Source: Escherichia coli 042 (lineage in GTDB: Bacteria > Pseudomonadota > Gammaproteobacteria > Enterobacterales > Enterobacteriaceae). Taken from it: DNA of 64,000 nt. Below the pieces are notes generated by a model that saw nothing but the letters and a program-made list of their open reading frames with translations, had not been told where the DNA came from and searched no databases. This document shows positions 5,501 to 42,690 of this stretch, piece after piece. Position numbers and translations under genes: made by a program. The stretch lies in the NCBI RefSeq assembly GCF_000027125.1, contig NC_017627.1; one strand, given 5' to 3'. Numbering within the stretch: the first letter of the stretch is position 1; each line of letters starts with the position of its first letter.

Positions 5501-7835
5501 CGGGCGTTTCCACCCAGCCGTTCTCCAGCTTCAGTGCCGTGAACGGTGAATCGCTCACAGGCAGGGAGGCCGGTTCAGCCCGCCCCGGCACAACAACCGT
5601 CATCGCATCTTCACTGACGGATGCCACCTGCAGGCGGTCACCGCCGGAGACGCGGAGTCCGGGAATTTTCCCTGTCACCCTCAGTCGCTCGCCGTCTGCC
5701 ACCGGCATTTTTTCCGGCCGGAACAGCGACCAGCTGCTGTCCAGGGAGGAAATACGCACCACCTGCGTTTCGCCCTGCGCATCCCGCAGGGTCAGGCTGT
5801 GACTCTGCGCTGTCACCCGGTCTATCACATAGCGGTCATGACTGCGTGTCTCCGGGTTCCACTGCTCCATCACCATCCCCGGTCGGTACATATCCCGCAG
5901 ATAACGGCTCCGGCTGTCCAGCCAGACCGGTGACAGTGCAGTCATGGTCACCTCAGGGTGTCCGAGCACGCCCTGCGTTTTCAGCTCACTGCGAATGGCC
6001 TGTGTCAGTATGGCCTGTTCCCGTACCCCGCTGACCTGTGCCACGCTCTCTTCTCCGGCTTTCACGCTGGCCGCAAAATCTCCGGCCAGCCGGGCATAGC
6101 GGACATTACGGTCCGGTTCACTGATGATGGTGGCCGGTCGCTGTTCTCCGCCCTGCCAGCGATATGTGTTCACCCCGGCATCCTTCATGGCCATCAGCGC
6201 ACTGCCTGTACCGGTTCGCTGCCCGCTGTCGGTTATCAGGACCTGTACGTTATGACGTGCGGCACCGTCCAGCAGGGTTAACGTCTCTTTCAGGGAGAGT
6301 TTTTCGCCCTGGTCGACGATAACAGTACTGCCCGGCGTGAAGGCCATGCCCTCCTGCAGCTGACGACGTCCGGTTATCAGCTCACCGGACAGCCGTTCAT
6401 CCTGCTTCAGGTTCATCTGCGAGCGACGGTCAGCGGCGATAATCTGCATCTCCCGCCCCTGCTCCCGGGCCATCATGACCAGTTCAGCCACCCGCTCACG
6501 CTGCCCGGCTGCACCGCCCTGCCCGGAAACAATGGCCAGCGACGGACGGTCCTGTGCCAGAACACTGACCGCATCGCTGTAACCAGCCGTCCGGGGGACA
6601 CTTTTCTCCGGATGTACGGTCACCCGGTTCTGTTTCATGATGTCACGACTGAGTGCCCGGACGGACAGCTCATCGAGCACATGAATTCCTGATGTGAACA
6701 GCCCCTTCTCACGGTCGAGGGGGATAAGCTGCTCACGACTGATGGCCTCATCGATACCGGCGCGTGCCCGTTCAATCACACCATTTTCCGGCGGCAGTAT
6801 ACCGACCGTTCTGGCCAGCACGTCCGTGTACGTAAACTGCACTTTTCGTTCACTTAATCCGGCAATGGCCTGTGTCACCGCCTGCTGCACATCCGGCCCC
6901 TCCTGTGAAACAGCCCCGGGCGCCTGCGTGTGGGTCTCCGCACGCTGATCCGCCGCGTCACGATATGCCCGGATGTCGAACCCGGTTTCCTTCAGCGTCT
7001 GCATCCATTCAGCCATTCTGACTTCAGGATCGACGTGCTGTTTGGATTTTCGCGTATCCAGTGCCGCCACATCCCGGGATTTCAGTGAGGCCCCTTCACC
7101 GACGGCCTCCCGGATAGCCTGTGAGCGTCCGGAGAAGGCTTCCACCGGTACGCCCGGCATCTCCCACATACCGTGCTTACCGACCACTTCGGTTTCATAG
7201 CCCAGTGCCTCAACCTGCTCTTTCAGTTTTTCCCGGTAGAGCCTGCCAAAGGCAATCTGATTAGCGTACACATTCTCAATGAACCCCGTTTTCCCCACTT
7301 TGTCACTGCTCAGTGTCTTCCACTCACCGTTATGCTGCGTGACATTAGCCACCACCGCATGCGTGTGTAACTGTGGTTCCTGATCGCGACTGGTGTCGTG
7401 GTTAAACAGTGCCATCACCAGATTACCGGTCAGTACCGTTTCTGACTGTCCGTCCGTCATCACCCGTGTGGAGGCCAGCGCCTCCACCTGACGAACAGCA
7501 AAGTCCACGGCCTGGTTATGTGCATCAATCAGGCGCTTATCGCCACCTAACATGGCCATCATGGAGACACTTTTGGGGGCGGAGAAGGTCAGGTCGTAGC
7601 CGGGACGATGCTTATTACTGCCATCCTGCATGCGGCTTAGATCCGCTCCGTCCGGCAGCCTTCCCTCCAGAAGACGGGTAAAAACATCCTTATCGACACT
7701 GCCCTGCAGTCCCAGCTGTTCAGCCCCCCTGCCGGCCCAGCGTTCTCCCATGCTGCCCAGTACATAGTAATTATCCTTGTCGGTATAATAGTTACCGGCA
7801 CTTCCGGCCGATCTGACCTGCGCGATACTCATCAT
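2565..7835 (-). CDS. traI: TraI relaxase/helicase
   Basis: 1756 aa, same length as F TraI; N-terminal relaxase region, helicase Walker A GYAGVGKT, long C-terminal domain. Confidence 0.97.
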   Translation of the reverse strand: MMSIAQVRSAGSAGNYYTDKDNYYVLGSMGERWAGRGAEQLGLQGSVDKDVFTRLLEGRLPDGADLSRMQDGSNKHRPGYDLTFSAPKSVSMMAMLGGDKRLIDAHNQAVDFAVRQVEALASTRVMTDGQSETVLTGNLVMALFNHDTSRDQEPQLHTHAVVANVTQHNGEWKTLSSDKVGKTGFIENVYANQIAFGRLYREKLKEQVEALGYETEVVGKHGMWEMPGVPVEAFSGRSQAIREAVGEGASLKSRDVAALDTRKSKQHVDPEVRMAEWMQTLKETGFDIRAYRDAADQRAETHTQAPGAVSQEGPDVQQAVTQAIAGLSERKVQFTYTDVLARTVGILPPENGVIERARAGIDEAISREQLIPLDREKGLFTSGIHVLDELSVRALSRDIMKQNRVTVHPEKSVPRTAGYSDAVSVLAQDRPSLAIVSGQGGAAGQRERVAELVMMAREQGREMQIIAADRRSQMNLKQDERLSGELITGRRQLQEGMAFTPGSTVIVDQGEKLSLKETLTLLDGAARHNVQVLITDSGQRTGTGSALMAMKDAGVNTYRWQGGEQRPATIISEPDRNVRYARLAGDFAASVKAGEESVAQVSGVREQAILTQAIRSELKTQGVLGHPEVTMTALSPVWLDSRSRYLRDMYRPGMVMEQWNPETRSHDRYVIDRVTAQSHSLTLRDAQGETQVVRISSLDSSWSLFRPEKMPVADGERLRVTGKIPGLRVSGGDRLQVASVSEDAMTVVVPGRAEPASLPVSDSPFTALKLENGWVETPGHSVSDSATVFASVTQMAMDNATLNGLARSGRDVRLYSSLDETRTAEKLARHPSFTVVSEQIKARAGETSLETAISLQKAGLHTPAHQAIHLALPVLESKNLAFSMVDLLTEAKSFAAEGTGFTELGGEINAQIKRGDLLYVDVAKGYGTGLLVSRASYEAEKSILRHILEGKEAVTPLMERVPGELMEKLTSGQRAATRMILETSDRFTVVQGYAGVGKTTQFRAVMSAVNMLPASERPRVVGLGPTHRAVGEMRSAGVDAQTLASFLHDTQLQQRSGETPDFSNTLFLLDESSMVGNTDMARAYALIAAGGGRAVASGDTDQLQAIAPGQPFRLQQTRSAADVVIMKEIVRQTPELREAVYSLINRDVERALSGLESVKPSQVPRLEGAWAPEHSVTEFSHSQEAKLAEAQQKAMLKGEAFPDVPMTLYEAIVRDYTGRTPEAREQTLIVTHLNEDRRVLNSMIHDAREKAGELGKEQVMVPVLNTANIRDGELRRLSTWENNPDALALVDNVYHRIAGVSKDDGLITLQDAEGNTRLISPREAVAEGVTLYTPDTIRVGTGDRMRFTKSDRERGYVANSVWTVTAVSGDSVTLSDGQQTRVIRPGQERAEQHIDLAYAITAHGAQGASETFAIALEGTEGNRKLMAGFESAYVALSRMKQHVQVYTDNRQGWTDAINNAVQKGTAHDVFEPKPDREVMNAERLFSTARELRDVAAGRAVLRQAGLAGGDSPARFIAPGRKYPQPYVALPAFDRNGRSAGIWLNPLTTDDGNGLRGFSGEGRVKGSGDAQFVALQGSRNGESLLADNMQDGVRIARDNPDSGVVVRIAGEGRPWNPGAITGGRVWGDIPDNSVQPGAGNGEPVTAEVLAQRQAEEAIRRETERRADEIVRKMAENKPDLPDGKTEQAVREIAGQERDRTATSERETALPESVLRESQREREAVREVARENLLQERLQQMERDMVRDLQKEKTLGGD

Positions 7836-28977: not shown

Positions 28978-30397
28978 CCCCGCCCTGCGGGTTCTTGTCT
29001 CCGGACATAAACTGCTGCGGATTCAGATTGCCCAGCTGCTTCAGCATCTGGTCGGTGTTAAAACCGTTCAGGTGGCTTTCTGCCGAGGGAGGATTCGGCA
29101 CAGGGCTTTCCGGGTTACCCTCTTCCGCTGTACTCTGTGACTGCTCCAGCGCCATTTCCTCCACGGTTTTCAGCTGGAAGCCGTCCTGGAACACCACGGT
29201 CACTTCGTTGCCCGCACCAATCGGTATCACCGGGTGATACTGTTCGGCACGTTTGATGTAGTAGTCACTGAGCGTCTGTGCGGCTTTCGATGCGCCGCCA
29301 CCGATACCCATTTTAAGGACATCGCCGGCCCCGTAAGCGGCTGTGGCACCCAGCCCGACAGCCGGCTGGGAGGCGCGCTCCATTCCCTGACCGATACCGT
29401 CAACAAATCCCGCGCCCCATGCCCAGCCGAGGATTTTGCCGTTACGCATCACCACTTCGCCCTTGATACCGTTTTTACCCCGGAAGCTGACATGCCCCTT
29501 AATCGGCATATCAATGGTTTTGCCATTCTTCAGGCAGCTGATATTACGGGTGCGAACAATAGCACGTTCACTGGAGACATCCCCCCAGGCTTCCAGCCCC
29601 ACAAAACATCCCGTTGCGTCATACGTCTTGCTGTTCGGCATTTCCACCAGACCGGTGATACGCAACTGCATCGGCACCGTGGATTCATTACCGGTGACTG
29701 AGGCATTGGCATCCGCCCCTTCAATCAGCATGGCTTTCGCAAAACTTCCTGACGGAATGTACGGCAGCGATGGTCCCTGTTTTCCCTCATTACGGGTAAA
29801 CACCTTACGCTGTATCCGGTTAGGCACCGGCACAGACTGGTACGTCACCTGTGGTGGTGGCGTGACACCATTCCCGGGATAAAACGCCGTCGGCGGTGGA
29901 ACAGCAACGCTGCCCTGCGGCGGGAAGGATACGGGGGTGTTTCCTGGCTGTGGTTCGCCTTCCGGCCCGGGCGGTGAGGCTGGCGTCTGCGGTACAGGCT
30001 CACCGGTCGCGGTGACGGGATTTGCACCCAGGGCTTTTACCTGCTCTGCCAGGGCAGCATTATCCTGTCCCAGCTTTTCAATACGACGCTGGTCATCACC
30101 GCGCTGTTTGTTCAGGACATCCAGTTCACGACGGATTTCCTCATACTGCTTCTGCATCTGCGCTGCCGTCACCTGCATCTCTGTGGTGGCATGCTGACGC
30201 ACCTTGTCATCAAAGGTCGTATCCACCACACCGGTCATATCCGGCACAGGCTCCTGTTCAGCCACCGCCTCACCGTTACCGGACATGTCCACATCAGACA
30301 GATACAGTGCACCACCAATCGCGGATGCTGCACCGACAACCACAATCCCCAGCCACAGGTACTGCTTGCGTTTCACAATGGTATTGATACTGGCCAT
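28946..30397 (-). CDS. traB: TraB (VirB10-like)
   Basis: 483 aa, N-terminal TM helix, proline-rich linker, C-terminal domain. Confidence 0.95.
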   Translation of the reverse strand: MASINTIVKRKQYLWLGIVVVGAASAIGGALYLSDVDMSGNGEAVAEQEPVPDMTGVVDTTFDDKVRQHATTEMQVTAAQMQKQYEEIRRELDVLNKQRGDDQRRIEKLGQDNAALAEQVKALGANPVTATGEPVPQTPASPPGPEGEPQPGNTPVSFPPQGSVAVPPPTAFYPGNGVTPPPQVTYQSVPVPNRIQRKVFTRNEGKQGPSLPYIPSGSFAKAMLIEGADANASVTGNESTVPMQLRITGLVEMPNSKTYDATGCFVGLEAWGDVSSERAIVRTRNISCLKNGKTIDMPIKGHVSFRGKNGIKGEVVMRNGKILGWAWGAGFVDGIGQGMERASQPAVGLGATAAYGAGDVLKMGIGGGASKAAQTLSDYYIKRAEQYHPVIPIGAGNEVTVVFQDGFQLKTVEEMALEQSQSTAEEGNPESPVPNPPSAESHLNGFNTDQMLKQLGNLNPQQFMSGDKNPQGGDAGKEGGNGG

Positions 30398-31125
30398 CAG
30401 TTGCCCTCCCCGTCACGGATGACATACACATCCATGCGCGCACCTGCCAGTAACTGGCTGGCAGGCTGGCTGAACATCACGGCACGGGTTCCCGGCTGCC
30501 AGAAATCACTTTCCCGGATATTCAGGGCAGACAGCGTTTTATTTTCCACGGCAAAGCGGACCATCTTCAGGTGATTCCCCGTCCATACGGCATCTGCCAC
30601 TGAAGACAGCCCCGCCGGGGCCTGCAGGGTTTCCTTTGTCACAGGAACCTGATACCAGCCTGCAGGTAATTTTCCGCCACGGACAGCCTGGCTGATGGTC
30701 ACAAGCAGGGATTCGTAAGGCGTGGACGTTTCCCACGCACCGGCTTCTTCTCCGGTTCCGCGCAGGTCACTGACCAGCTGAATGGTACGCCCCGCGCCTT
30801 CACGGGGAACGGCCTGAATGGAAAGATTCAGACCACGTTCTGTTTCCAGAATGAACGTAAAGGGCTTTTTGTTGACGGTGGCAACCACCACACCGCCGGA
30901 GGCGGTCTGCTCATTATTGGTCAGGGCACCATCCAGACTGTTCACGGCGATAATCCGGTCACCGGGAACGGTAAACAGATTCGGGCTGGTATTGCTGATG
31001 GCAATACTGGCCTGACCACCGTTCACCATTGGCACCACGGTGGGGGACAGCGTACCGTTTGCGGCCATCACGCTGCAGGAAAAAAACAGGCTGCCGAATA
31101 TTATTGCCGTATTATTTTTTCTCAT
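30397..31125 (-). CDS. traK: TraK secretin-like protein
   Basis: 242 aa, same as F TraK. Confidence 0.95.
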
Positions 31126-31678
31126 CGTCTGTTTCCCCGAAATTATCCAGCCAGGTCACCCCGTTTTCCCGCTTCAGAATAAGGATGTAATGTTTGATAT
31201 CAGTGAAAGGTTTTGAATCACCAATCCAGGTTTTAAGCACACCACGAATTTCCACACGGCCATACTGAGGCCAGACACGAACACTGGTCTGGAAAAAGGC
31301 TGAGTTCACGTTATCGTTTTTAATACGCTTCGCTTCTTCAGCCAGAATAACTTTCATCTGGTTCTGTGCGCCCGGGCGGATATATTGCAGAAGCGCCTGA
31401 TGTGAGGCATCGACGGTTTCTGATGAAACATTCAGACGGAGGGCAATAAATGACAGCGCCATCTGCTGTAAATAAGAGGCGTCGGCACTGTTCTGTGACA
31501 CGGCAAAGGGCACATTAAATCCCATTGGGGTCACGGCAGTGCGTTGCTCATTCTGAAGACGGTAGTTATTCACCCCCTGAATGACGTTAACAGAGAGGCT
31601 GAGAACAATAAGCACTGACATAAATATAAAGGCGATGGCCATTACACGACTGGTACTTAAACGGGCACCGTGTTCCAT
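31112..31678 (-). CDS. traE: TraE
   Basis: 188 aa, same as F TraE. Confidence 0.95.
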
Positions 31679-31699
31679 ATAACAATCCTGGTATCAGTT

Positions 31700-32011
31700 C
31701 TATTTAATCCACTGCCGGAAACACGAATCGGGAACATTATGAAAAATACCGCGCAGCAGGGCTGTTGGCATATACCAGTAAATCAGGTCACGTAACCAGG
31801 AACTGCCCCGCCCTTTTTTCAGTTTTTTAATCCCGAAATAAACCAGAACCGCTGCACCAATACCGAACAGATATTTTGATGTTGTGATACCCCAGCCAAT
31901 ACAGACTGCTGCGGGGATCAGTTCATCCAGTGGCAGGCCAAACCAGCGGCTCTGGTTGGTCAGTGTTTCCGGGAAACGATATTTCTTAAGTTTATTCTCG
32001 TCTCCCGACAT
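31700..32011 (-). CDS. traL: TraL
   Basis: 103 aa small membrane protein following traA. Confidence 0.9.
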
Positions 32012-32025
32012 CGTTTTATTTCCTG

Positions 32026-32391
32026 TCAGAGGCCAACGACGGCCATACCCACAGCAATAAATACAGAGATGATGGCAAAACCGGCCAGGAACTTGACGTT
32101 TTTGGTCATCATGTACATGACCGCACCGACCAGAACTTCAGCCAGAACAACCCATTTAACAACACTGGAGTCCTTACCGAAGGTCGCCTTAACCGTGGAG
32201 TTACCACTCTGCATCAGGTCCTGACCTGCCCCCTGGGCGGCCATTGCCAGTTGCGGGAAGAACATCATCAGAACAGCAGCAGGGATCACAGCGCGAACCA
32301 GGCGAAGCATATTCAGACGAGTGAATTTAGAAAAAAACGATTTCTTTTCAACGGGCGCAGAAGCACCCTGAACACTTAAAACAGTATTCAT
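32026..32391 (-). CDS. traA: TraA propilin (F-pilin)
   Basis: 121 aa, leader plus mature pilin ...[67 protein letters not shown]. Confidence 0.97.
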
Positions 32392-32424
32392 ATGATTCCT
32401 CTGTTTAATATTGATAGATAAAAA

Positions 32425-32652
32425 CTAAAGTTCTTTAAATGTTGACTCGTTCTCTTCGATCACCTCCCTGAATATTTCTTCATTATAGAAATCAGGAAAC
32501 CGTTTCAGATGATCTCTGAGACGGATCTGAACCTCTATAGTTTTACTTCTACCGCTACGATCTTTGGCCCGAATAAGTTGGTTATTTGTATCTTCATCGA
32601 GATACACTGAGACTGTTCTGCTTATCCCGCCTCTCGCGTTACGCCTCCTCAC
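32425..32652 (-). CDS. traY: TraY (R100-type, 75 aa ribbon-helix-helix oriT accessory protein)
   Basis: 75 aa basic protein immediately upstream of traA. Confidence 0.85.
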   Translation of the reverse strand: MRRRNARGGISRTVSVYLDEDTNNQLIRAKDRSGRSKTIEVQIRLRDHLKRFPDFYNEEIFREVIEENESTFKEL

Positions 32653-32745
32653 TCAATTCACCTCTGTTTCCCGACTAATAAAATCATGATTGCACAGAAA
32701 CCGACAAAAAAAAACACACCAAAATTGGCGTGCCTTATTTAACAT

Positions 32746-33432
32746 TTACTTAACACCATAAAATTCACGAATTATACTTAATAGCGAATCTATTTCTCCT
32801 TTATAGATACATGACACTCTGAATAAATCAAAGTGTTCAAAAAATTCTTTTATTTTCCGTTTAACTGGTTTAATTCGATCCTCAGATGCTCTGTCTGTAA
32901 TACCCAACTCTCTGGCAATTGTTGCGTGACCAACACCCAGCATATAAAAAGAGAAAACAACCAATGTCCCTGGAGAAAGATCATTCCATATCGTTAATTT
33001 ATCAGAAGTATTTGTATTACTTCCACTCTGATTTAACGCAAAAAATGGATAATCAGGAAACGGATTAATTTGCCATAAAACAACAGATTCGTCATTATAA
33101 AAAGAAACATTCTCCATCCTTATCTGATAGATTTCGCCATGAAAATTAAAACGACGACAAAATGCAGAGCCATGTCCAAGAGCCTGGCATTCCAGTTCAA
33201 GTGATGAAAGAAAAATTTCAACCTGCAGACGTATATAACTCTCTCCGGATAAGGGTTTATCTTCTCTGGAAAAGAGTTCAATAAAAGCCCCATTGGCATA
33301 AAGGATTTTCCGGTTTTTGTTACGGACACAAACCGGAACGGGAGAATTTCTGTAGATATTCTGAACGTTAAGGATGTATTTATTTACAGATTGACTGTTA
33401 AGTGGCCTTTCTCTACGATCCAGCGCACACAT
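32746..33432 (-). CDS. traJ: TraJ transcriptional activator of the tra operon
   Basis: Start at ATG 33432 (MCALDRRER...) preceded by GGAGG; the longer ORF to 33492 is probably leader. Confidence 0.85.
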
Positions 33433-33505
33433 AGGAACCTCCGTTAAGGATTCTATGGACAGTCGATGCAGGGAGGTCTGAACTCCCTGCATCGGCGATT
33501 TTCAG
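33427..33505 (+). ncRNA. finP: FinP-like antisense RNA (antisense to traJ leader, RBS and start)
   Basis: Plus strand carries the complement of the traJ RBS, then stem-loop gcagggag...ctccctgc and a U-rich tail; ends approximate. Confidence 0.5.
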
Positions 33506-33625
33506 TTTCAATTTTTAACGTGGCATTAACCACGTAATTAATATAACCTTTATGCGGTTAATTGTCATCAAATTGAACCAGATCAAAATCCTGTTATTTG
33601 AAGCAAATCAACTTTTAATTCTTTT

Positions 33626-34009
33626 TTATTCCTCATCATTTTCTGGAAAGAACCTCTCCATCTCAGATGACACCTTATCCCTGATATCTTCGACCATATT
33701 CGCATATTCAAACTTTGGATTCCCGGAAACATGAGGGCTTAGTGACTCAATACCTAAAATCTTAGCAACTGTTGACTGTGTTTTTACCGCACATTCAAGA
33801 AGTACCTTATTAAACTCAGCCTGATTGAACGCTGACTCTTTACGCTCCATCTGAGCCTCATATACACGAAGCCCTAATTCGAGAAGCATAGTGGATATGC
33901 TTGAGAAACTTACATCTGTACTTTTAGCTCCTTCTGCACGTCTTCTTTCCACAATTTTATTTATTTTATAGACAATTTCGTCACTGACATAAGCCTGCAC
34001 TTTCGCCAT
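33626..34009 (-). CDS. traM: TraM relaxosome accessory protein
   Basis: 127 aa, MAKVQAYVSDEIVYKINKIVERRRAEGAK... Confidence 0.95.
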   Translation of the reverse strand: MAKVQAYVSDEIVYKINKIVERRRAEGAKSTDVSFSSISTMLLELGLRVYEAQMERKESAFNQAEFNKVLLECAVKTQSTVAKILGIESLSPHVSGNPKFEYANMVEDIRDKVSSEMERFFPENDEE

Positions 34010-34430
34010 ATGTATACCTCTTTATTTTCTTATCGAATCAAATTTATTTCACATATAAAAAAATGACAATTCATCGATGAATCGAATCGTGACGCAAGTT
34101 ACGAAAATTACGATTCATGCAGCAAATCACATCACGAATTGAATCTAGAGTCAATTCGCTTTAACTCGTTGTTTTATTATTACTGATTCATCTATGAGTT
34201 GCGTTAAATTCATTGGTGAATCATATGCGATTCACCAATGAATCCTTTTTATAATGTAAAATAAATTAAAATACATTATTTAAAACATAAGTTAATGATT
34301 CAAATAGCAAATCAGCAAAAACTTGTTTTTGCGTGGGGTGTGGTGCTTTTGGTGGTGAGAACCACCAACCTGTTGAGCCTTTTTGTGGAGTGGGTTAAAT
34401 TATTTACGGATAAAGTCACCAGAGGTGGAA
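34010..34430 (+). promoter_or_regulatory. oriT: oriT (origin of transfer); nic site predicted between 34341 and 34342 on the plus strand
   Basis: F-type nic motif GTGGGGTGT/GGTGCTTTT at 34333-34350 between traM and orf169; AT-rich region 34020-34300. Confidence 0.85.
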
Positions 34431-34432
34431 AA

Positions 34433-34942
34433 ATGAAAAAATGGATGTTAGCAATCTGCCTGATGTTTATAAATGGGATCTGCGAAGCCGCCGATTGCTT
34501 TGATCTTGCAGGTCGGGATTACAAAATAGACCCGGATTTACTGAGAGCGATATCATGGAAAGAATCCCGTTACCGGGTTAATGCCATCGGTATTAATCCG
34601 GTAACGGGATATGGCAGCGGACTGATGCAGGTAGATTCCCAGCATTTTAACGAACTGGCCCGCTATGGAATTAAGCCGGAACATCTGACAACAGATCCCT
34701 GCATGAACATTTATACCGGTGCTTATTATCTGGCAATAGCCTTTAAAAAATGGGGCGTCTCCTGGGAGGCCGTTGGTGCATACAATGCCGGATTCAGGAA
34801 GACCGAACGCCAGAACCAGAGACGTCTTACCTACGCATCAGAGGTTTACCGGATTTATACCTGGATAAAGAGCAGTAAAGGCATCCGGGTTCCGACCACG
34901 AAGAAATCACTTTCCCAAATTAACAGTGTGCAGAACAATTAA
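34433..34942 (+). CDS. Orf169 / gene X lytic transglycosylase-like leading-region protein
   Basis: 169 aa from [19 protein letters not shown]; soluble lytic transglycosylase-like [10 protein letters not shown]...GLMQV. Confidence 0.9.
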
Positions 34943-35200
34943 TATTGTATACATTGTCAAATACCGGTTATGCCGCGACAGCGGCATGGAAGGCCACACA
35001 CAAAAATATCATATGAGTGATAATGCTGACTGGCCGAAGCCCCGCAAAGCGGGACCCCATCTTATATATATCCGGTAACTGCACAGCCTCCTGCCAGACC
35101 ATTTTTCGCGGGCACAATATTTACAGACTACCGAAAAGCCAGTTGATGAAATTGAGGCATATCAGACGACACAGCAATGCCGCAGGATGATAATATAAGT

Positions 35201-35228
35201 AAAGCCCCGAAAAATTTTTCGGGGCTTT
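35201..35228. terminator. Bidirectional hairpin terminator between convergent orf169 and the yubP-like gene
   Basis: aaagccccgaaaaatttttcggggcttt. Confidence 0.5.
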
Positions 35229-35238
35229 ACTTATATTA

Positions 35239-36060
35239 TCATGACTTCCACTCCCTGAACTGTTCGGCAATCATCCATAATGCTTTGTTGATTCGGATAT
35301 CACCGTCAATGCCTGTAATGGCTCTTGTTCTGGTATTTTTACCGGAGGCACTTCGCCCCGATAATCCACCTTTTATCATATTCTCCTGAACCCGCTGCCA
35401 AGTTGTCCAGAGATCGTTCTGTTTATCCTCCCAACGGCGGGGAGTAATTATTTGTTCTGGCGTCACTGGCGTTTTATTTTCATCTTCGTACCTAGCCATC
35501 AATGCAGCTCTGCCAAATAAATGTTGTTCGTCACTGTTAAGATGTATCTCTTTCATTGTCTCCATATTTTCAGTGACTTTATCAAAGACACCGAGCACTT
35601 CATACGCTCCCTCAATAACCTGCCCGACAATATCACCTTTATGTGGAACGCGGATTTCGCCAAAATTATTCCCACACACCAGGCCATTTGTGCAGACAAA
35701 ACGAAAAATTCCTGGGATCATCTGATAACTGGATGAACCATCATGTGAATTAAGCAGGATAATTTCAGGAACTTCTTTCCCGTTAATATGCCCTTCCCTG
35801 CGAAGACGTAACATATGTTTACTGTATTCGCGGCGTCCCAAATCACGAACCCGACTCTGACAGGCAAAGAACGGCTGGAAACCTTCATCACGTAACTTAT
35901 TGATGATATTGATGGTTGGGATATATGTATAACGCTCACTCCGGGATTCATGTTTATCACCAGAAAAGACAGATGGAACAAACTGCATTAATTCGTCATC
36001 CGTTAACGGGCGCTCACGGCGAATAGAATTATATCGACCAAAACGGGAAGCTAATCGCAT
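35239..36060 (-). CDS. Conserved leading-region protein (YubP-like, 273 aa)
   Basis: 273 aa ORF next to orf169; family assignment from memory of F leading-region gene order. Confidence 0.7.
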   Translation of the reverse strand: MRLASRFGRYNSIRRERPLTDDELMQFVPSVFSGDKHESRSERYTYIPTINIINKLRDEGFQPFFACQSRVRDLGRREYSKHMLRLRREGHINGKEVPEIILLNSHDGSSSYQMIPGIFRFVCTNGLVCGNNFGEIRVPHKGDIVGQVIEGAYEVLGVFDKVTENMETMKEIHLNSDEQHLFGRAALMARYEDENKTPVTPEQIITPRRWEDKQNDLWTTWQRVQENMIKGGLSGRSASGKNTRTRAITGIDGDIRINKALWMIAEQFREWKS

Positions 36061-36170
36061 AACAGTAACTCCTTTATGAAGGCATAAAATTAATAAAATT
36101 TTTTTCGCTTAATATCATCCCCCCTCGGTTATCGTTAACAAAAAGACAACAATTCCGAGGGGAAGGACCA

Positions 36171-36467
36171 TCAAATCAGGTCAGTTCGGGACTGACCAAC
36201 CTGCCGAGTGAAAAGCAGTAACAGCGCGATCAACTCATCAGCGTTTTTTCTGACAAGAGGAGTATGATTCTCCAGGCTATCCAGTAAGTCATGCAGCTCA
36301 TTATTGACCTGATGGAGCACCTTAAAGAGTGCACCAGAATCCCGGCAGCTCTGATATGCAAGATTTGCCTGAACAGCACGATTCTGCATGATCCCGATTT
36401 GTGCGATTGCGTCTTTCTGCTGATCGCCTGTTGGCTGATAAGTGGTGTTAAAAGAAAATGCGCTCAT
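36171..36467 (-). CDS. Hypothetical leading-region protein (98 aa)
   Basis: ORF immediately downstream of Frpo-like repeat A. Confidence 0.45.
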   Translation of the reverse strand: MSAFSFNTTYQPTGDQQKDAIAQIGIMQNRAVQANLAYQSCRDSGALFKVLHQVNNELHDLLDSLENHTPLVRKNADELIALLLLFTRQVGQSRTDLI

Positions 36468-36483
36468 AATTCCTCCTGTATCT

Positions 36484-36944
36484 GATGTTTTCAGCCCCCA
36501 TCATCTGTTGAGTTTCGGGAGCCGCGGTTTTGACGTTTTGCGGGGACCTGCCTTTTGTTCCCTCCGGTATTCACCATCACCTGTTTGAGAACCTTCGCCG
36601 CAAGGGGCATCACTGCCACGGCCTGACGCACCTGTCCTGGGCAGAACGCAAAATTTTTTACCGGGTTTTAGGTAAAAAATTTTGTGGTCTGTTCATTTAC
36701 CCTGGACAGTCAGTGCGGCAGGTTGTGGCTGTATCAGCCCCCGGCGACAGGGGCTTAAACAGGTGAATGGCACCGGACACAACAACGGGCAGGGACCCGC
36801 CGCAACGACGTGAAGCGCGGTTTGCGAAACGGCGTTGCGCCTTACATCCCGGCGGCCTTTTGCCGGGATGCCAGGAGCGCAGGCCACGGCGCGACAGAGG
36901 CGGCGCGACCGGAACGGTCGCTGCAAGCCCGGGGTTTCGCGTCA
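36484..36944. repeat. Frpo-like repeat A (putative single-stranded DNA promoter element)
   Basis: Near-identical to 42053-42506 and 45451-45900; internal palindromes such as aaaattttttaccgggttttaggtaaaaaatttt. Confidence 0.7.
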
Positions 36945-37316
36945 GGGATGGAAGCCCGCCAGGGGGACGCCCGGAAAAGACACTGCCAGGAGAACAACAA
37001 AACAGACAATAATCAGGGCAGCAGTAATCAGAGTCAGAACAGGAGGAAAAAGAGAATAATCAAAGGGAAGGTGATGTGATTTCTGACAGGTCATAAACAG
37101 AGAAGGCGGGGGAAAAGAACGGGCGCCGCAGGCGCGCGTTCTTCCCCGTTCCCGGAGGGAAACGGCCTTCCTGGCAGTCTGGTTGTTCATGCCCGCACAA
37201 TGCCAGCAAGGAGAAAGGGGCCACCGGCGAACCAGCAGCCCCTTTATAAAGGCGCTTCAGTGCAGTCAGACCAGCATCATCCCTGAAAAGGCGGGCCTGC
37301 GCCCGCCTCCAGGTTG

Positions 37317-37478
37317 CTACTTACCGCCGGATTCGTAAGCCATTGTTGCCGTAACTTCCCTGTATCCGTCCTTCAGCCGGACTTCGCACAGACGATTCCG
37401 GGTCAGGAATGTGAATATCAACAACGTGCAGCACACGATTAATACGCACCAGATAAGGGCGTTTCCCGGTAGTTTCAT
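37317..37478 (-). CDS. hok: Hok/Gef-family membrane toxin (flmA/hok-like)
   Basis: 53 aa [53 protein letters not shown] with AGGAGGAG SD; not in the supplied ORF track because it is nested in the mok-like frame. Confidence 0.85.
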
Positions 37479-37536
37479 GGTTTACTCCTCCTTGCAATTT
37501 GCACGGTAAGAGGCCATACTGACGTGGACTAGACAT
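37321..37536 (-). CDS. mok: Mok-like overlapping reading frame
   Basis: 71-aa ORF overlapping hok in another frame. Confidence 0.45.
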
Positions 37537-37560
37537 GCAGAGGCCTCGTGGGTTAATGAA
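37485..37560 (+). ncRNA. sok: Sok-like antisense RNA (approximate)
   Basis: Plus-strand promoter-like ttgcaa-17 bp-catact opposite the mok start; ends not determined. Confidence 0.3.
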
Positions 37561-37685
37561 AAATTAACTACGGGGCTTTTGTCCTTCTGCCACACGACAC
37601 GGTAACAAACCACCTTCACGTCATGAGGCAGAAAGCCTCAAGCGCCGGGCACATCATAGCCCATATACCTGCGCACTGACCACAC

Positions 37686-38033
37686 TCACTTTCCCTGAAA
37701 ATAATCCGGTCGTTCAGCCAGTTCACGGGCTATCAGTTCATCCGCAAACAGTGGTGCATGCCTGTTGATACGTTTCTCCAGATTCCGCCGTCGTACCGCA
37801 GCCTTACGTTCTTCGCTCCAGCGGCGCACCGGGCGGTCAGAAATAAAATCCAGACAGACCGCATACCCTGCTCCGGCAACCCAGCGTGACATAACGGATG
37901 CCGGTGCAGGCTGCCCCGCCTCCACCACTTCTGAAACCAGTTCATGCTCGCCAGGACAGGGATAAGGCAGTTTCCAGCGCAGTGAGTAACGCCACTTCAC
38001 GCCGCCTCCCGGAGTTTGTTCGGCACCATCCAT
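37686..38033 (-). CDS. Hypothetical ORF overlapping the 3-prime end of psiA
   Basis: 115-aa GC-rich ORF; may be non-coding hok mRNA leader. Confidence 0.25.
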   Translation of the reverse strand: MDGAEQTPGGGVKWRYSLRWKLPYPCPGEHELVSEVVEAGQPAPASVMSRWVAGAGYAVCLDFISDRPVRRWSEERKAAVRRRNLEKRINRHAPLFADELIARELAERPDYFQGK

Positions 38034-38716
38034 CGCTCCATCTCACGGACGGCATGACCGGCCTCCCTTGCCGCCATACCAGCCTCTGCGATGACCTGCC
38101 AGAACGGCATATCCTGCCACTGCCAGCGTTCCATTCCGGCCAGTGACGGGAAACGCTCGCCCCACTGCCAGAACAGGGTTTCCAGGTCATGCTCTGCCAC
38201 CCGGTCACTCCAGCGTGCATGCCAGCTTCCAACTGTTTCCGGCGAATGGAATGCCAGTTCGACTTCAGCCTGAGCGACCAGCGCCTGGTACGCACGGGCT
38301 TTCTGCTCTGCCTCCCGTGCCTGCTGGCGGCTGTACTTCTGCATGACCAGCGCGGATTTATGGCGACTGCGCTCCCTGACGCGGAACCGCACCGACGGAA
38401 ACAACCGCTCTGCTGCATCACCGGGAAGGGGAAGGAGGCAGACCTCGCCCTGTGTTTCAATCAGCACATCGACGGCATACAGCCACTGAAGACGGCTGCC
38501 GTGCAGTTCTTCTGCGGTCAGGGATGGCATGAAAAATCGCAGGTCAGACAGCGAAATCCTGCGGCTTCCGTTCAGACAGCGGAAAAACGCTCCCGCATAC
38601 GGATATTCCGCCAGCGTGTTTCCCTGATGGCGGCGTTTTTCCGTCTCCGCCACCGCCCGCCATGCGGCCTGTTGCTCTGCGCTGAGGGGAACCAGTGTCT
38701 GTGATCGTGCGCTCAT
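37997..38716 (-). CDS. psiA: PsiA
   Basis: 239 aa [32 protein letters not shown]..., matches F PsiA from memory. Confidence 0.95.
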
Positions 38717-39147
38717 GCCTGACCTCCTTCCGCCATCAGGATATGAATGATGTCGTTAACGCTGTACCCCTGCGCATCCAGTGACGCCGCCAGTGCCAGT
38801 GAATGGCTGACAGCTTCCGGTGCAAACCGCCGCTGCACCTGAACCACCGCAAACGGCTCACCACCGGCATTCACCAGAACCAGCACCCAGACCTGAGAGA
38901 CATCGCCCGGTGAACATAACGCCAGGTGAAAACATTCGTGGGCAGGCGTGAAACGGACCTGGACGGGGAAAAATCCACCAAACTCGCTGCCGTACTCGCC
39001 GTTCATCGTCCAGTTGTCCGGCGCATCCAGTTCCCGCATCACGGCGTGTGTCAGCTCACGACGTTCATCACTTCCGGCAGCCCGGATATCTTCATATTCC
39101 TGTGCGCTCATGGTCTGTAATACATTCAGGGTCAGTTCAGTTTTCAT
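38713..39147 (-). CDS. psiB: PsiB anti-SOS (RecA-inhibiting) protein
   Basis: 144 aa [40 protein letters not shown]... Confidence 0.95.
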
Positions 39148-39201
39148 CACAGTATCTCCCTTGCTGCCGCCCCGTCTCCGGCGGGGCGGTGTGGTTGTTC
39201 A

Positions 39202-41160
39202 TCAGGCGGCATCAGCCAGGTTATCGGTGCGTTCAGTGGCATCTGTCTGTGGATGTGGTGCACACATCCAGCCTGGAACCCAGCGGTTGTCTTTCATATT
39301 GTGCTCTGCATGTTCAGCCGCATCACCTTTCTTCATCTTCTCCGCGTCCCGTGCGGCACCGGACAGCCCTGCCTCATTCAGGGCTGCGATAATCTGCGGC
39401 TTTTTCAGGTGTCCGAAGAAGTTTGCTTTTGTCGGCTGCCACCAGTCACGCATGTGAAAGCCGATGGCGCTTTCCAGCGAGTCAAGCGGACTGCGTGACG
39501 TGTGACCACACTCGCGGGTCTGAACGCCGTGGATGCTGCACGCGGTACAGAAGCTGAGCAGGGATAACAGCACCTCCTGGCTGAGTGACAGGAACGTCGT
39601 CATATCCCGTTCCCATCCTTCCGGCAGCAGGGCAGCAAAACGAGAGTGTTCTGCCATCAGCGCCATGAATGCGGCACCTTCCTTCCCCGACGGTGCATCG
39701 CTGGTCAGCGCATAATGCTCACATTCCAGGCGAATTCTGGCGGGACTACTATGCGCTTTGCTGCCAAACACATTCAGGCAGAGCGTCCATGCCAGCAGTG
39801 TCAGGGATTTGTCCGGTTGCTGCATCAGTGCCGCCTGGACTGCCAGCGTGCGTTCGGAAGACATTTTCGTCAGCAGTGGCAGACTGATTTCCTCCACTGA
39901 CGCTTTTTCCTGCACCTGTTCCGTGCGGTCAGCGTCGTCAGCCGCATCATCCTCACTGCGTAACTGCACACCACGCTGGACACATACGTTTCCATAACGC
40001 CAGGACACCACCACTCCACCTCCGGCACGCATCTCCGGCGTCCACGCTCTGACCTTCGCCATGCAGCGCATCAGCTTCATTTCTGCTTCCAGCAGGTCAG
40101 ATTCCTCACACTGATTTTCCAGCGCGTCGTAACGCGTCATCAGTTCGTTCAGACGTTCTTCTTCCGCCTCCGTCAGCACCGCTTCCGGCTCCGGCAGACA
40201 GCGGTATGTTCCGGCATCCTCACGGCACTCACCGACAGGCTCCATGCGTCCGGCGCACCATCCCCAGCCTTCGGCTTCCCGAAGGAACTCTGCAACAGCC
40301 TGGAGTTTTTCCAGCAGGGCGGCATCGAGCGCAACACAGTCCACATAGCCACCCTCGTCGTCGCTGAACAAATCAGTGCGCAGTTCATCTGGCGAGAAGG
40401 CATCAGCCCCCACAAAGCGGAATTTACTGTTCCCCGCCACCGCCACTTCACTTTCGGTCACCAGACGACGAATGGTCTGTACTTCCGGTTTACCGCCCCA
40501 TCCCGACTGGCAGGCGGCTTCAAACACCTGCACCTGACGCGCGGTGTCGTTCTCCAGCGCCAGCGCCTGACAGTGCTCTGTGGTGATGCGGTCTTCTGCC
40601 AGCGCATCGAGGATGACAGGCGCAAGGTCTGCCAGTTTCAGCATTCGCTGAACGTGGCGGGGCGAATAGCCCAGCAAATCACCGATTTGTGCAGGCGTTT
40701 TGCCTTCCTGCGCCATCGCACGGAATCCGGCAATCTGTTCGGCAGGGTGCATATCCCGACGATGACCGTTTTCAGTCATTGATGCAGCCGTCGCCAGCTC
40801 CTGCGGAATAACCTTCACGCGTACAGGCCAGTCAGCCGGAATGATGCCACGCTCTGCCAGCATGTTGAGTGCTGCCAGTCGGCGACCACCTGCGGCGACA
40901 CCGTAACGGTCACCAGGCAGGGTATGCACGACCAGATTCTGCAACAGGCCAACGCCCTTAATGGACTCCGCCAGTTCGCTGACGGACTCTGCGGAATACG
41001 GCACAGTGCGCACATTCAGCGGTGATTTAATCAGTGAAGCCAGCGGCACACTCACTTCCTCCGTCTGCGCCAGCAGGGCAGACAGGACTGTTTCCTGCGT
41101 TTTTGCATATTTACGGCTTGCTTTGCGGGTGGTTTCTGGTTCACACTTCGTTACAGGCAT
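39202..41160 (-). CDS. ParB-like nuclease-domain leading-region protein (652 aa)
   Basis: N-terminal ParB/Srx-like region LQNLVVHTLPGDRYGVAAGGRRLAA; conserved position between ssb and psiB. Confidence 0.85.
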   Translation of the reverse strand: MPVTKCEPETTRKASRKYAKTQETVLSALLAQTEEVSVPLASLIKSPLNVRTVPYSAESVSELAESIKGVGLLQNLVVHTLPGDRYGVAAGGRRLAALNMLAERGIIPADWPVRVKVIPQELATAASMTENGHRRDMHPAEQIAGFRAMAQEGKTPAQIGDLLGYSPRHVQRMLKLADLAPVILDALAEDRITTEHCQALALENDTARQVQVFEAACQSGWGGKPEVQTIRRLVTESEVAVAGNSKFRFVGADAFSPDELRTDLFSDDEGGYVDCVALDAALLEKLQAVAEFLREAEGWGWCAGRMEPVGECREDAGTYRCLPEPEAVLTEAEEERLNELMTRYDALENQCEESDLLEAEMKLMRCMAKVRAWTPEMRAGGGVVVSWRYGNVCVQRGVQLRSEDDAADDADRTEQVQEKASVEEISLPLLTKMSSERTLAVQAALMQQPDKSLTLLAWTLCLNVFGSKAHSSPARIRLECEHYALTSDAPSGKEGAAFMALMAEHSRFAALLPEGWERDMTTFLSLSQEVLLSLLSFCTACSIHGVQTRECGHTSRSPLDSLESAIGFHMRDWWQPTKANFFGHLKKPQIIAALNEAGLSGAARDAEKMKKGDAAEHAEHNMKDNRWVPGWMCAPHPQTDATERTDNLADAA

Positions 41161-41218
41161 AATCATCCCCTTATAATTGCTTATGTCCTGCCGGACGTTC
41201 GCGCGTCCGGCACCTCTC

Positions 41219-41452
41219 TTACTTAAGAATGCCGAAATTCCGGATGACATGGTTCATCCAGTACCCGGCACCGTCCTCAAAATTCCAGGTACGCCAGACC
41301 AGGCCACTGTTATTGCGGACAACCAGGCGAAAATGCGTTCCCTGATCATCCTCGATAAAGACATTCCGGTACTGTGCGGCAACGGCTTCAGCCTGTTCGC
41401 GGGTAAAGGAGCCGTCAGGCAGCCCCTGAAATATTCTGAAATATTCGCTCAT
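41219..41452 (-). CDS. Small conserved leading-region protein (YubL-like)
   Basis: 77 aa from [10 protein letters not shown]..., between ssb and the ParB-like gene. Confidence 0.5.
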
Positions 41453-42052: not shown

Positions 42053-42690
42053 TGATGTTTTCAGCCCCCATCATCTGTTGAGTTTCGGGAGCCGCGGTTT
42101 TGACGTTTTGCGGGGACCTGCCTTTTGTTCCCTCCGGTATTCACCATCACCTGTTTGAGAACCTTCGCCGCAAGGGGCATCACTGCCACGGCCTGACGCA
42201 CCTGTCCTGGGCAGAACGCAAAATTTTTTACCGGGTTTTGGGTAAAAAATTTTGTGGGCTGTTCATTTACCCTGGACAGTCAGTGCGGCAGGTTGTGGCT
42301 GTATCAGCCCCCGGCGACAGGGGCTTAAACAGGTGAATGGCACCGGACAGAACAACGGGCAGGGACCCGCCGCAACGACGTGAAGCGCGGTTTGCGAAAC
42401 GGCGTTGCGCCTTACATCCTGGCGGCCTTTTGCCGGGATGCCGGGAGCGCAGGCCACGGCGCGACAGAGGCGGCGCGACCGGAACGGTCGCTGCAAGCCC
42501 GGGGTTTTCACGCATCGGACCGTAGCGACAGCCCGAAACCGCGCCAGCGGGTTCGGCGGAGACTGGCGGGTGCGCCAGCAGCTGCCTGTCGGAGTCGGGC
42601 CTGACGACCGGATGCCGCCAGGCAGCCGGGAGCCGAAGGTGCGCCCGGCAGACAGGACAACACTGCAGTAGTCAGAATCAGAGCGGCAGG
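42053..42690. repeat. Frpo-like repeat B, immediately upstream of ssb
   Basis: Near-identical to repeat A over about 450 bp and to repeat C over about 600 bp. Confidence 0.7.

Follow-up and report, generated by a model that had tools for sequence, protein, structure and literature searches.

The psiA-hok interval and its surroundings

The stretch of Escherichia coli 042 DNA analysed here (the window; 64,000 nucleotides of contig NC_017627.1) carries large tra-sized ORFs at 1-34 kb and a minus-strand gene order consisting of an ssb-like gene, a ParB-like gene, psiB, psiA, a small ORF that we designate orf104, hok, a 98-aa ORF, and a DUF932 gene (273 aa). This location is the leading region of a conjugative F-like plasmid, with orf104 on the leading-gene strand. 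Plasmid DNA enters a recipient with its leading region first, and the proteins encoded there are for the most part functionally uncharacterised. The features that frame orf104 within this region are as follows.

42053..42352, minus strand: Frpo2-like repeat, 300 nt, upstream of ssb; presumed single-stranded-DNA promoter
39202..41250, minus strand: ParB-like gene (pbf/yfjB), 682 aa, from the ORF list
38713..39150, minus strand: psiB (Pfam PsiB, E 7e-63)
37997..38716, minus strand: psiA, the upstream cistron, 239 aa (Pfam PsiA PF06952, E 2.3e-38)
36483..36782, minus strand: Frpo1-like repeat, 300 nt, downstream of hok; oriT-proximal module boundary

The two Frpo-like repeats, which are direct and 99% identical, lie 5570 bp apart on either side of the ssb-pbf-psiB-psiA-orf104-hok module. 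Each 300-nt repeat is centred on the palindrome CAAAATTTTTTACC(N8)GGTAAAAAATTTTG, and the pair corresponds to a 149-bp repeat described in pMccB17 (PMC10912980). In the F plasmid, Frpo1 is a single-stranded-DNA promoter needed for zygotic ygeA/B expression, and Frpo2 drives zygotic expression of ssb-yfjA-yfjB-psiB-psiA (PMC9849209); the F experiments on expression in the recipient covered ssb, yfjA, and psiB (PMC9849209; bioRxiv 10.64898/2026.01.09.698686). The repeats of the window match the Frpo1/Frpo2 pair of F, from which their promoter role is extrapolated. Within this module, orf104 is contiguous and co-oriented with psiA, and a scan found no terminator-like site from psiA to the orf104 stop. 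Because no terminator-like site separates the two genes, orf104 would be coupled to psiA in translation and transcribed from the Frpo2-like repeat in the recipient; by analogy with F, such co-transcription and early expression are likely.

Extent of orf104 and its overlap with psiA

Read mechanically from ATG to TGA, the ORF occupies 37686..38033 on the minus strand and encodes 115 aa (ORF list). The conserved gene is shorter, and its boundaries are defined by the following features.

37686..38000, minus strand: orf104, conserved coding sequence of 104 aa plus TGA stop, with a GTG start
37997..38000, minus strand: GTGA start/stop overlap of 4 nt, psiA TGA with orf104 GTG
38001..38033, minus strand: 11-codon extension, consisting of the psiA 3' end in another frame
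38005..38010, minus strand: Shine-Dalgarno-like GGGAGG within the psiA 3' end, 4 nt upstream of the GTG

The first-pass annotation of this DNA had described a GC-rich 115-aa ORF, at 37686-38033, overlapping psiA by 36 bp. The frame is indeed present, but only the 104 codons of 37686..38000 belong to the conserved gene. Likewise, an overlap with psiA exists, although it amounts to 37 nt for the mechanical ORF and to 4 nt for the conserved one; the larger figure arose because the first ATG was taken as the start. The description as GC-rich is only mildly true, the coding sequence having a GC content of 56.5% as compared to 52.8% for the window and 61.5% for psiA.

A real gene with a 115-aa product, initiated at ATG 38033 and overlapping psiA by 37 nt, would use the stronger of the two start codons, and some automatic gene calls are 115 aa long (P0002, P0005). 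The ATG, however, is a GTG in E. albertii (L005), diverged loci possess no start codon at that position, and the codons of the extension are unconserved in relatives and fall outside the conserved gene. Nearly all homologues instead start M-K-W-R-Y at a codon that overlaps the upstream stop, and the N-terminus M/V-K-W-R-Y-S-L (MKWRYSL in the window) is kept across 28 aligned homologues. The GGGAGG motif is correctly spaced for GTG 38000 and wrongly spaced for the ATG; a GGAG motif ~10 nt 5' of the start is found in most enterobacterial loci. PGAP also picks the 104-aa form, calling the same 315-nt coding sequence (equivalent to window 37686..38000) in the two nearest plasmids, CP048936 (97.9% identical) and pSAL4261-1 (96.1%). 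A 115-aa product is very improbable, and the true gene is best read as 104 aa from GTG 38000.

In the GTGA overlap, the last two bases of the GTG together with the next base form the psiA stop, a geometry of translational coupling. A 4-nt (A/G)TGA overlap with the upstream gene occurs in 18 of 27 loci, and in all but two of the loci with a recognisable psiA; the other loci of the 27 have a spacer of 5-32 nt or, in two instances, no long upstream ORF near the start. Because the GTG overlaps the psiA stop and is preceded by GGGAGG, coupling or re-initiation is most likely, and orf104 would be translated by ribosomes finishing psiA.

Coding status and purifying selection

ORF length alone is no evidence of a gene in this region, because ORFs of 169-172 aa exist in alternative frames of psiA and psiB (37942-38460, minus strand; 38189-38704, plus strand; 38948-39457, plus strand). 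These are probably by-products of GC-rich coding sequence. It is conservation, rather than length, that lifts orf104 above chance. A search of 5.8 billion proteins returned 224 homologues at E<=1e-3 covering ~100% of the query; among the homologues listed, identities range from 65 to 100%, almost all are 104-108 aa long, and the hosts are Escherichia, Salmonella, Klebsiella, Enterobacter, Citrobacter, Cedecea, and Atlantibacter. Cluster P0001 matches the 104-aa product with 100% identity (E 7.6e-65), and in a profile search of 1.84 billion representatives, 456 50%-cluster representatives passed E<=1e-3, of which 147 also passed E<=1e-10. In a one-genome-per-species scan, the frame is intact and full-length at 28 of 30 genome loci, and both frame and length are conserved as far as Pseudomonas plasmids such as pKF715A, at 53-61% identity. 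Frameshifted or truncated copies are found in Yersinia pekkanenii (L032, 587-847) and in an Enterobacterales MAG (L034, 3995-4234), where the damage may reflect pseudogenisation or assembly error.

The pattern of codon substitution is specific to the orf104 frame. Across 28 sequences aligned by codon, dN/dS has a pairwise median of 0.144 in the frame of the gene and is 1.5-1.7 in four of five control frames; the mirror antisense frame, which has third positions in common with orf104, gives 0.26. Between the window and diverged loci, dN/dS ranges from 0.09 to 0.26, and nearly all other frames contain stops in nearly all homologues. To judge from these sequence comparisons, the ORF is a genuine protein-coding gene under purifying selection.

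Relation to the hok transcript

Immediately downstream of orf104 lies a hok/sok (flm) type I toxin-antitoxin locus, which consists of the following features.

37653..37682, minus strand: hok promoter, sigma-70-type, from a promoter scan; its position fits the Rfam 5' end at 37647
37476..37647, minus strand: sok/hok-leader model RF01794 (Rfam, 95.2 bits)
37321..37536, minus strand: mok/DUF5431 (Pfam DUF5431)
37317..37478, minus strand: hok coding sequence (Pfam HOK_GEF, E 6e-16)
37250..37647, minus strand: hok/mok mRNA, 398 nt, a structured neighbour that excludes orf104

The -35 box of the hok promoter (TGGTCA, 37682..37677) begins 4 nt past the orf104 TGA (37686-37688) and is separated by an 18-nt spacer from a -10 box (TATGAT) ending at 37653. 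The transcript starts at ~37647, 39 nt downstream of the ORF stop, and the RF01794 match opens with the 5' element GGCGCUUGAGG. Thus, orf104 lies upstream of the hok transcript and outside the hok leader. The 398-nt hok mRNA has a minimum free energy of -161.7 kcal/mol, with a z-score of -5.49 versus shuffles, whereas the RNA of the ORF has a z-score of +1.54, 96 of 100 shuffles folding at least equally well. As side observations, the 5' end of the hok mRNA pairs with its 3' end in the classical fold-back arrangement, and the Hok protein encoded here is 53 aa in length and 73-98% identical to the Hok proteins of related plasmids.

The first-pass annotation had placed the ORF within the structured leader of a hok-like mRNA, a placement that does not survive the position of the transcript start, the intervening promoter, and the positive z-score of the ORF RNA. 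Assignment of orf104 to the hok 5' leader or to the sok antisense region was similarly rejected, since RF01794 is confined to 37476..37647 and the promoter at 37653..37682 separates the two. Weak Rfam matches to Betaproteobacteria-1 (38028..38150, 22 bits) and CsrC (16 bits) score far below the gathering thresholds and were dismissed as chance. In comparison with hok/sok, orf104 is a neighbour that lies outside the transcript, has unstructured RNA, and is found in many loci that lack hok altogether; hok is downstream of orf104 in only some loci.

These observations bear on whether the ORF is a chance frame in the GC-rich non-coding sequence of a hok-like structured leader. Long spurious ORFs are common here (the 169-172 aa frames over psiA), and the ORF belongs to no Pfam or NCBIfam family, as such an origin would predict. 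Yet the hok mRNA begins beyond the ORF stop with its own promoter in between, the ORF RNA is less stable than most shuffles, dN/dS is low in the orf104 frame only, frame and length persist at 53% identity in Pseudomonas plasmids and in loci without hok, and the product has a confident fold prediction (below). A chance frame has next to no likelihood. The initial reading had considered two possibilities, a genuine small gene and an artefactual frame within regulatory RNA, and had named conservation and the codon-substitution pattern across relatives as the means of deciding, loss of the frame in relatives being the outcome that would speak against a gene. The frame is conserved in relatives, and with purifying selection, a large family, a confident AlphaFold2 fold, and an unstructured RNA, it is the small gene, and not the artefact, that the comparisons strongly support.

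The orf104 protein and its family

The orf104 protein is basic, with a pI of ~9.6 overall and of 10.8 for residues 59-104; its N-terminal half is neutral. After an Arg/Lys-rich helix, RRWSEERKAAVRRRNLEKRINRH, come two invariant motifs, APLFADELI and RPxYFxGK. AlphaFold2 produced a model with a mean pLDDT of 90.3 from only 34 sequences, with strands at residues 2-9, 20-27, and 46-53, and helices at residues 63-81, 83-96, and 98-101. In the predicted architecture, a three-stranded beta-sheet precedes first an arginine-rich and then an acidic helix, at the end of which is the conserved RPxYFxGK. The protein matches PHROG 27524, a family of unassigned function, over residues 2-104 (E 4.8e-23), and has no Pfam (E<=1), NCBIfam, or PADLOC match. 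A profile search of PDB sequences yielded nothing below E 0.19, a Foldseek search of PDB folds yielded no significant match, and the sole Foldseek match in BFVD was an uncharacterised Myoviridae homologue. A Pfam scan of ten longer distant relatives found no fused domains.

Threonine dehydrogenases are proteins of ~340 aa built from Zn-dependent alcohol dehydrogenase or SDR catalytic and NAD-binding domains. The orf104 family nonetheless appears in NCBI and UniProt as 'theronine dehydrogenase' (WP_000872077.1, QTN10295.1, UniProt A0A290YNM1). A threonine dehydrogenase identity is rejected for a 104-aa protein with no Pfam or NCBIfam match and no PDB sequence below E 0.19. The name is a misnomer, a propagated annotation error worth correcting. 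In the literature searched, no paper text uses this name or these accessions, and a supplementary table of Samuel et al. 2024 is the sole place where the name occurs.

In that table (PMC11541004, supplementary file 3), the family appears as family 39 among the 100 largest leading-region families, with 1302 members, the representative A0A290YNM1, and significant enrichment in the leading region (FDR p = 0). Its median position is 8 from oriT, on strand 1, the leading-strand orientation, and its label is 'Uncharacterized; Theronine dehydrogenase' (PMC11541004). Neither DIAMOND nor Foldseek matched family 39 to anti-CRISPR or anti-restriction sets (PMC11541004). The 'theronine dehydrogenase' entries, family 39, and PHROG 27524 do not differ from orf104; all are the same family, one with no Pfam model, solved structure, or assigned function. 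Thus, the orf104 family is already catalogued, as an uncharacterised protein. With ArdA, KlcA/ArdB, and the anti-CRISPRs, orf104 shares its niche, small size, orientation, and enrichment near oriT (PMC11541004), but it resembles them neither in sequence nor in structure, has no fold match in PDB, and is basic overall where the DNA mimics are acidic.

Relatives in other mobile elements

Distant members of the family occur in a range of genetic contexts. One adjoins a ParB_N fusion protein, SSB, and toxin-antitoxin genes (L036), a second adjoins DUF4942, DUF736, and ParB_N (L038), and a third lies in a prophage with an integrase and pRha (L037). On the Pseudomonas plasmid pKF715A, the homologue is found among DUF4942 and C5 cytosine methyltransferase genes. 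In three Pseudomonas plasmid loci (L025, 3597-3965; L028; L030), a conserved 122-aa protein always precedes orf104; it is 62-69% identical among the three, ends 29-32 nt upstream, and has no Pfam match. Pseudomonas oryzihabitans NZ_CP102430.1 (98 kb) carries two apparently identical copies of the locus ~49 kb apart, at 30072-38389 (L028) and 79228-87545 (L029), which suggests a large duplication or a dimeric assembly.

Phage members extend this range. A 6.8-kb contig (L039; JGI 3300020050) encodes a family member at 5996-6328, after Zot, in an apparent inovirus; its phage-like genes include Zot, REP_ORF2-G2P, and DUF2523, with a three-gene run of overlapping stops and starts. A filamentous phage, like a conjugating plasmid, enters cells as single-stranded DNA. 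Homologues at 36-40% identity are also found in the cultured temperate phages RcapNL and Rhodovulum phage vB_RhkS_P1, where they lie in the early operon, between CI-like repressor and primase genes in a chain of 4-nt overlaps; the Rhodobacter phage RcapNL homologue is gp57 (L041, 4492-4842). All-against-all BLASTP of the neighbouring genes revealed no conserved partner gene beside distant members, the neighbours being related to one another only within the Pseudomonas plasmids. The family is a widespread one of early or leading-region proteins of mobile elements, without a known domain or fold.

Conservation relative to PsiA, PsiB and the ParB-like protein

In enterobacterial loci, the order ParB-like/psiB/psiA/orf104 is held even where PsiA is only 33-57% identical, and orf104 is consistently the best conserved of the four genes when loci are compared with the window. 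At L006, for example, orf104 is 81% identical to the window, as compared to 57% for PsiB and 35% for PsiA, and at L017 the corresponding values are 75% for orf104, 37% for PsiB, 37% for PsiA, and 41% for the ParB-like protein. Typical values for L006-L034 against window 37686-41250 are 75-81% for orf104, 35-57% for PsiA, 37-60% for PsiB, and 41-61% for the ParB-like protein. Like the SOS-inhibition genes psiB and psiA, orf104 lies in the Frpo2-type unit, its start overlapping the psiA stop; it differs from both in having no sequence or fold similarity to either, in being more conserved than either, and in occurring in elements that lack both.

The conserved adjacency of the two genes across enterobacterial plasmids, with their 4-nt overlap, raises the question of whether orf104 is a dedicated partner of PsiA, a stoichiometric complex being what would explain the start/stop overlap. 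We know of no established function for PsiA. The evolution of the two proteins is discordant, however, with orf104 75-81% identical where PsiA is 35-37% identical, and members without PsiA are found in Pseudomonas plasmids, ICE-like regions, the inovirus, and temperate phages, with upstream neighbours that are mutually unrelated. An AlphaFold2 model of a PsiA-linker-orf104 fusion gave a pTM of 0.40 and no gain in confidence, a weak test given 16 sequences, a non-multimer model and no PAE; within the fusion, the pLDDT of the orf104 part fell from ~92 to ~85. Together, the flanking-gene, context, and fused-model results argue against a dedicated PsiA partner, which we consider unlikely.

Loss of orf104 from F/R1-type plasmids

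At least 5000 PLSDB plasmids match the psiA-hok region. Among the matches listed, only the closest (H1, H2) align to the whole query in one piece, and most of the others split into two aligned segments with 83-84% coverage. In pTA142 (L003), in Shigella sonnei p1538007_3 (L004) and, by coordinates, in pMccB17, 244 nt are missing from the middle of the gene, a deletion that shifts the frame and destroys it; the deleted plasmids keep diverged remnants of the first 19 nt and last ~50 nt of orf104. Most F/R1-type plasmids hold just such a 244-nt-deleted remnant. The internal segment of the gene is present in 3516 plasmids, 305 at identities of at least 90% and 3209 at 60-80%, mostly from Klebsiella, and every full-length match listed bears the label 'hypothetical protein' or 'theronine dehydrogenase'. 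Since even very diverged plasmids have the gene after psiA, possession of it is the ancestral state and the F/R1-type condition a loss.

The remnants have given rise to minor annotation features of their own. At L003/L004 (1745-2120), a spurious 46-aa ORF runs from the old orf104 start through the hok promoter, and in some remnant-bearing records a 59-aa ORF is called on the opposite strand. In addition, pTA142 (L003, 2008-2769) has a 1-nt deletion before the psiA stop (GGAGGT-GCG versus GGAGGCGGCG) that lengthens the annotated PsiA to 253 aa.

Such widespread loss, without obvious cost to the F-like plasmids that underwent it, could mean that orf104 is also a decaying and functionless relic in the window, open by chance and heading toward the F/R1-type deletion. 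The GTG in place of an ATG start would accord with decay, as would the E. albertii copy, which carries 6 nonsynonymous versus 1 synonymous change, one at the nearly invariant S62. The window copy, on the other hand, retains every invariant residue of the family alignment with no frameshift or stop, along with a strong Shine-Dalgarno sequence and the coupling overlap, and comparison with the two closest plasmids gives synonymous versus nonsynonymous counts of 4 versus 1 and 6 versus 3. Decay of the window copy is quite improbable as compared to a maintained gene.

A possible role in plasmid establishment

The overall reading, which we hold with high confidence, is that 37686..38000 on the minus strand is a real 104-aa gene, the psiA-following cistron of a leading-region unit, and a possible establishment factor. 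In this reading, orf104 is the cistron directly after psiA in an ssb/pbf(yfjB)/psiB/psiA unit between Frpo-like repeats, with the Frpo2-like repeat at 42053..42352 as the likely site at which transcription of the unit starts. By analogy with F, the protein would be made transiently in the recipient, just after DNA entry, from this Frpo2-type promoter. The product would bind a conserved host macromolecule, whether nucleic acid or protein, and not a partner specific to the plasmid. We favour an autonomous early-entry module whose target would be some conserved component of the host; an establishment or anti-host role, considered by itself, has slightly less than an even chance of being correct.

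A broader interpretation is more tentative, namely that orf104 defines a family of early-entry effectors not recognised before, having a new fold and shared by conjugative plasmids, ICE-like regions, and filamentous and temperate phages. If so, conservation above that of PsiA, PsiB, and the ParB-like protein may reflect a highly conserved host target, candidates for which include single-stranded nucleic acid and proteins of replication, recombination, or transcription, and the effect would be to promote establishment or to blunt the host response.

Regardless of its role, the annotation question at this locus is settled, in that the gene is 104 aa and lies outside the hok RNA, and a misleading database name is flagged; the practical gain is modest, because the family was already catalogued as uncharacterised. 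In the psi operon, orf104 is the most conserved member, yet it has been deleted from F, from R1-type plasmids, and from many other plasmids. This natural contrast between presence and absence could serve to find the role of orf104 in plasmid establishment.
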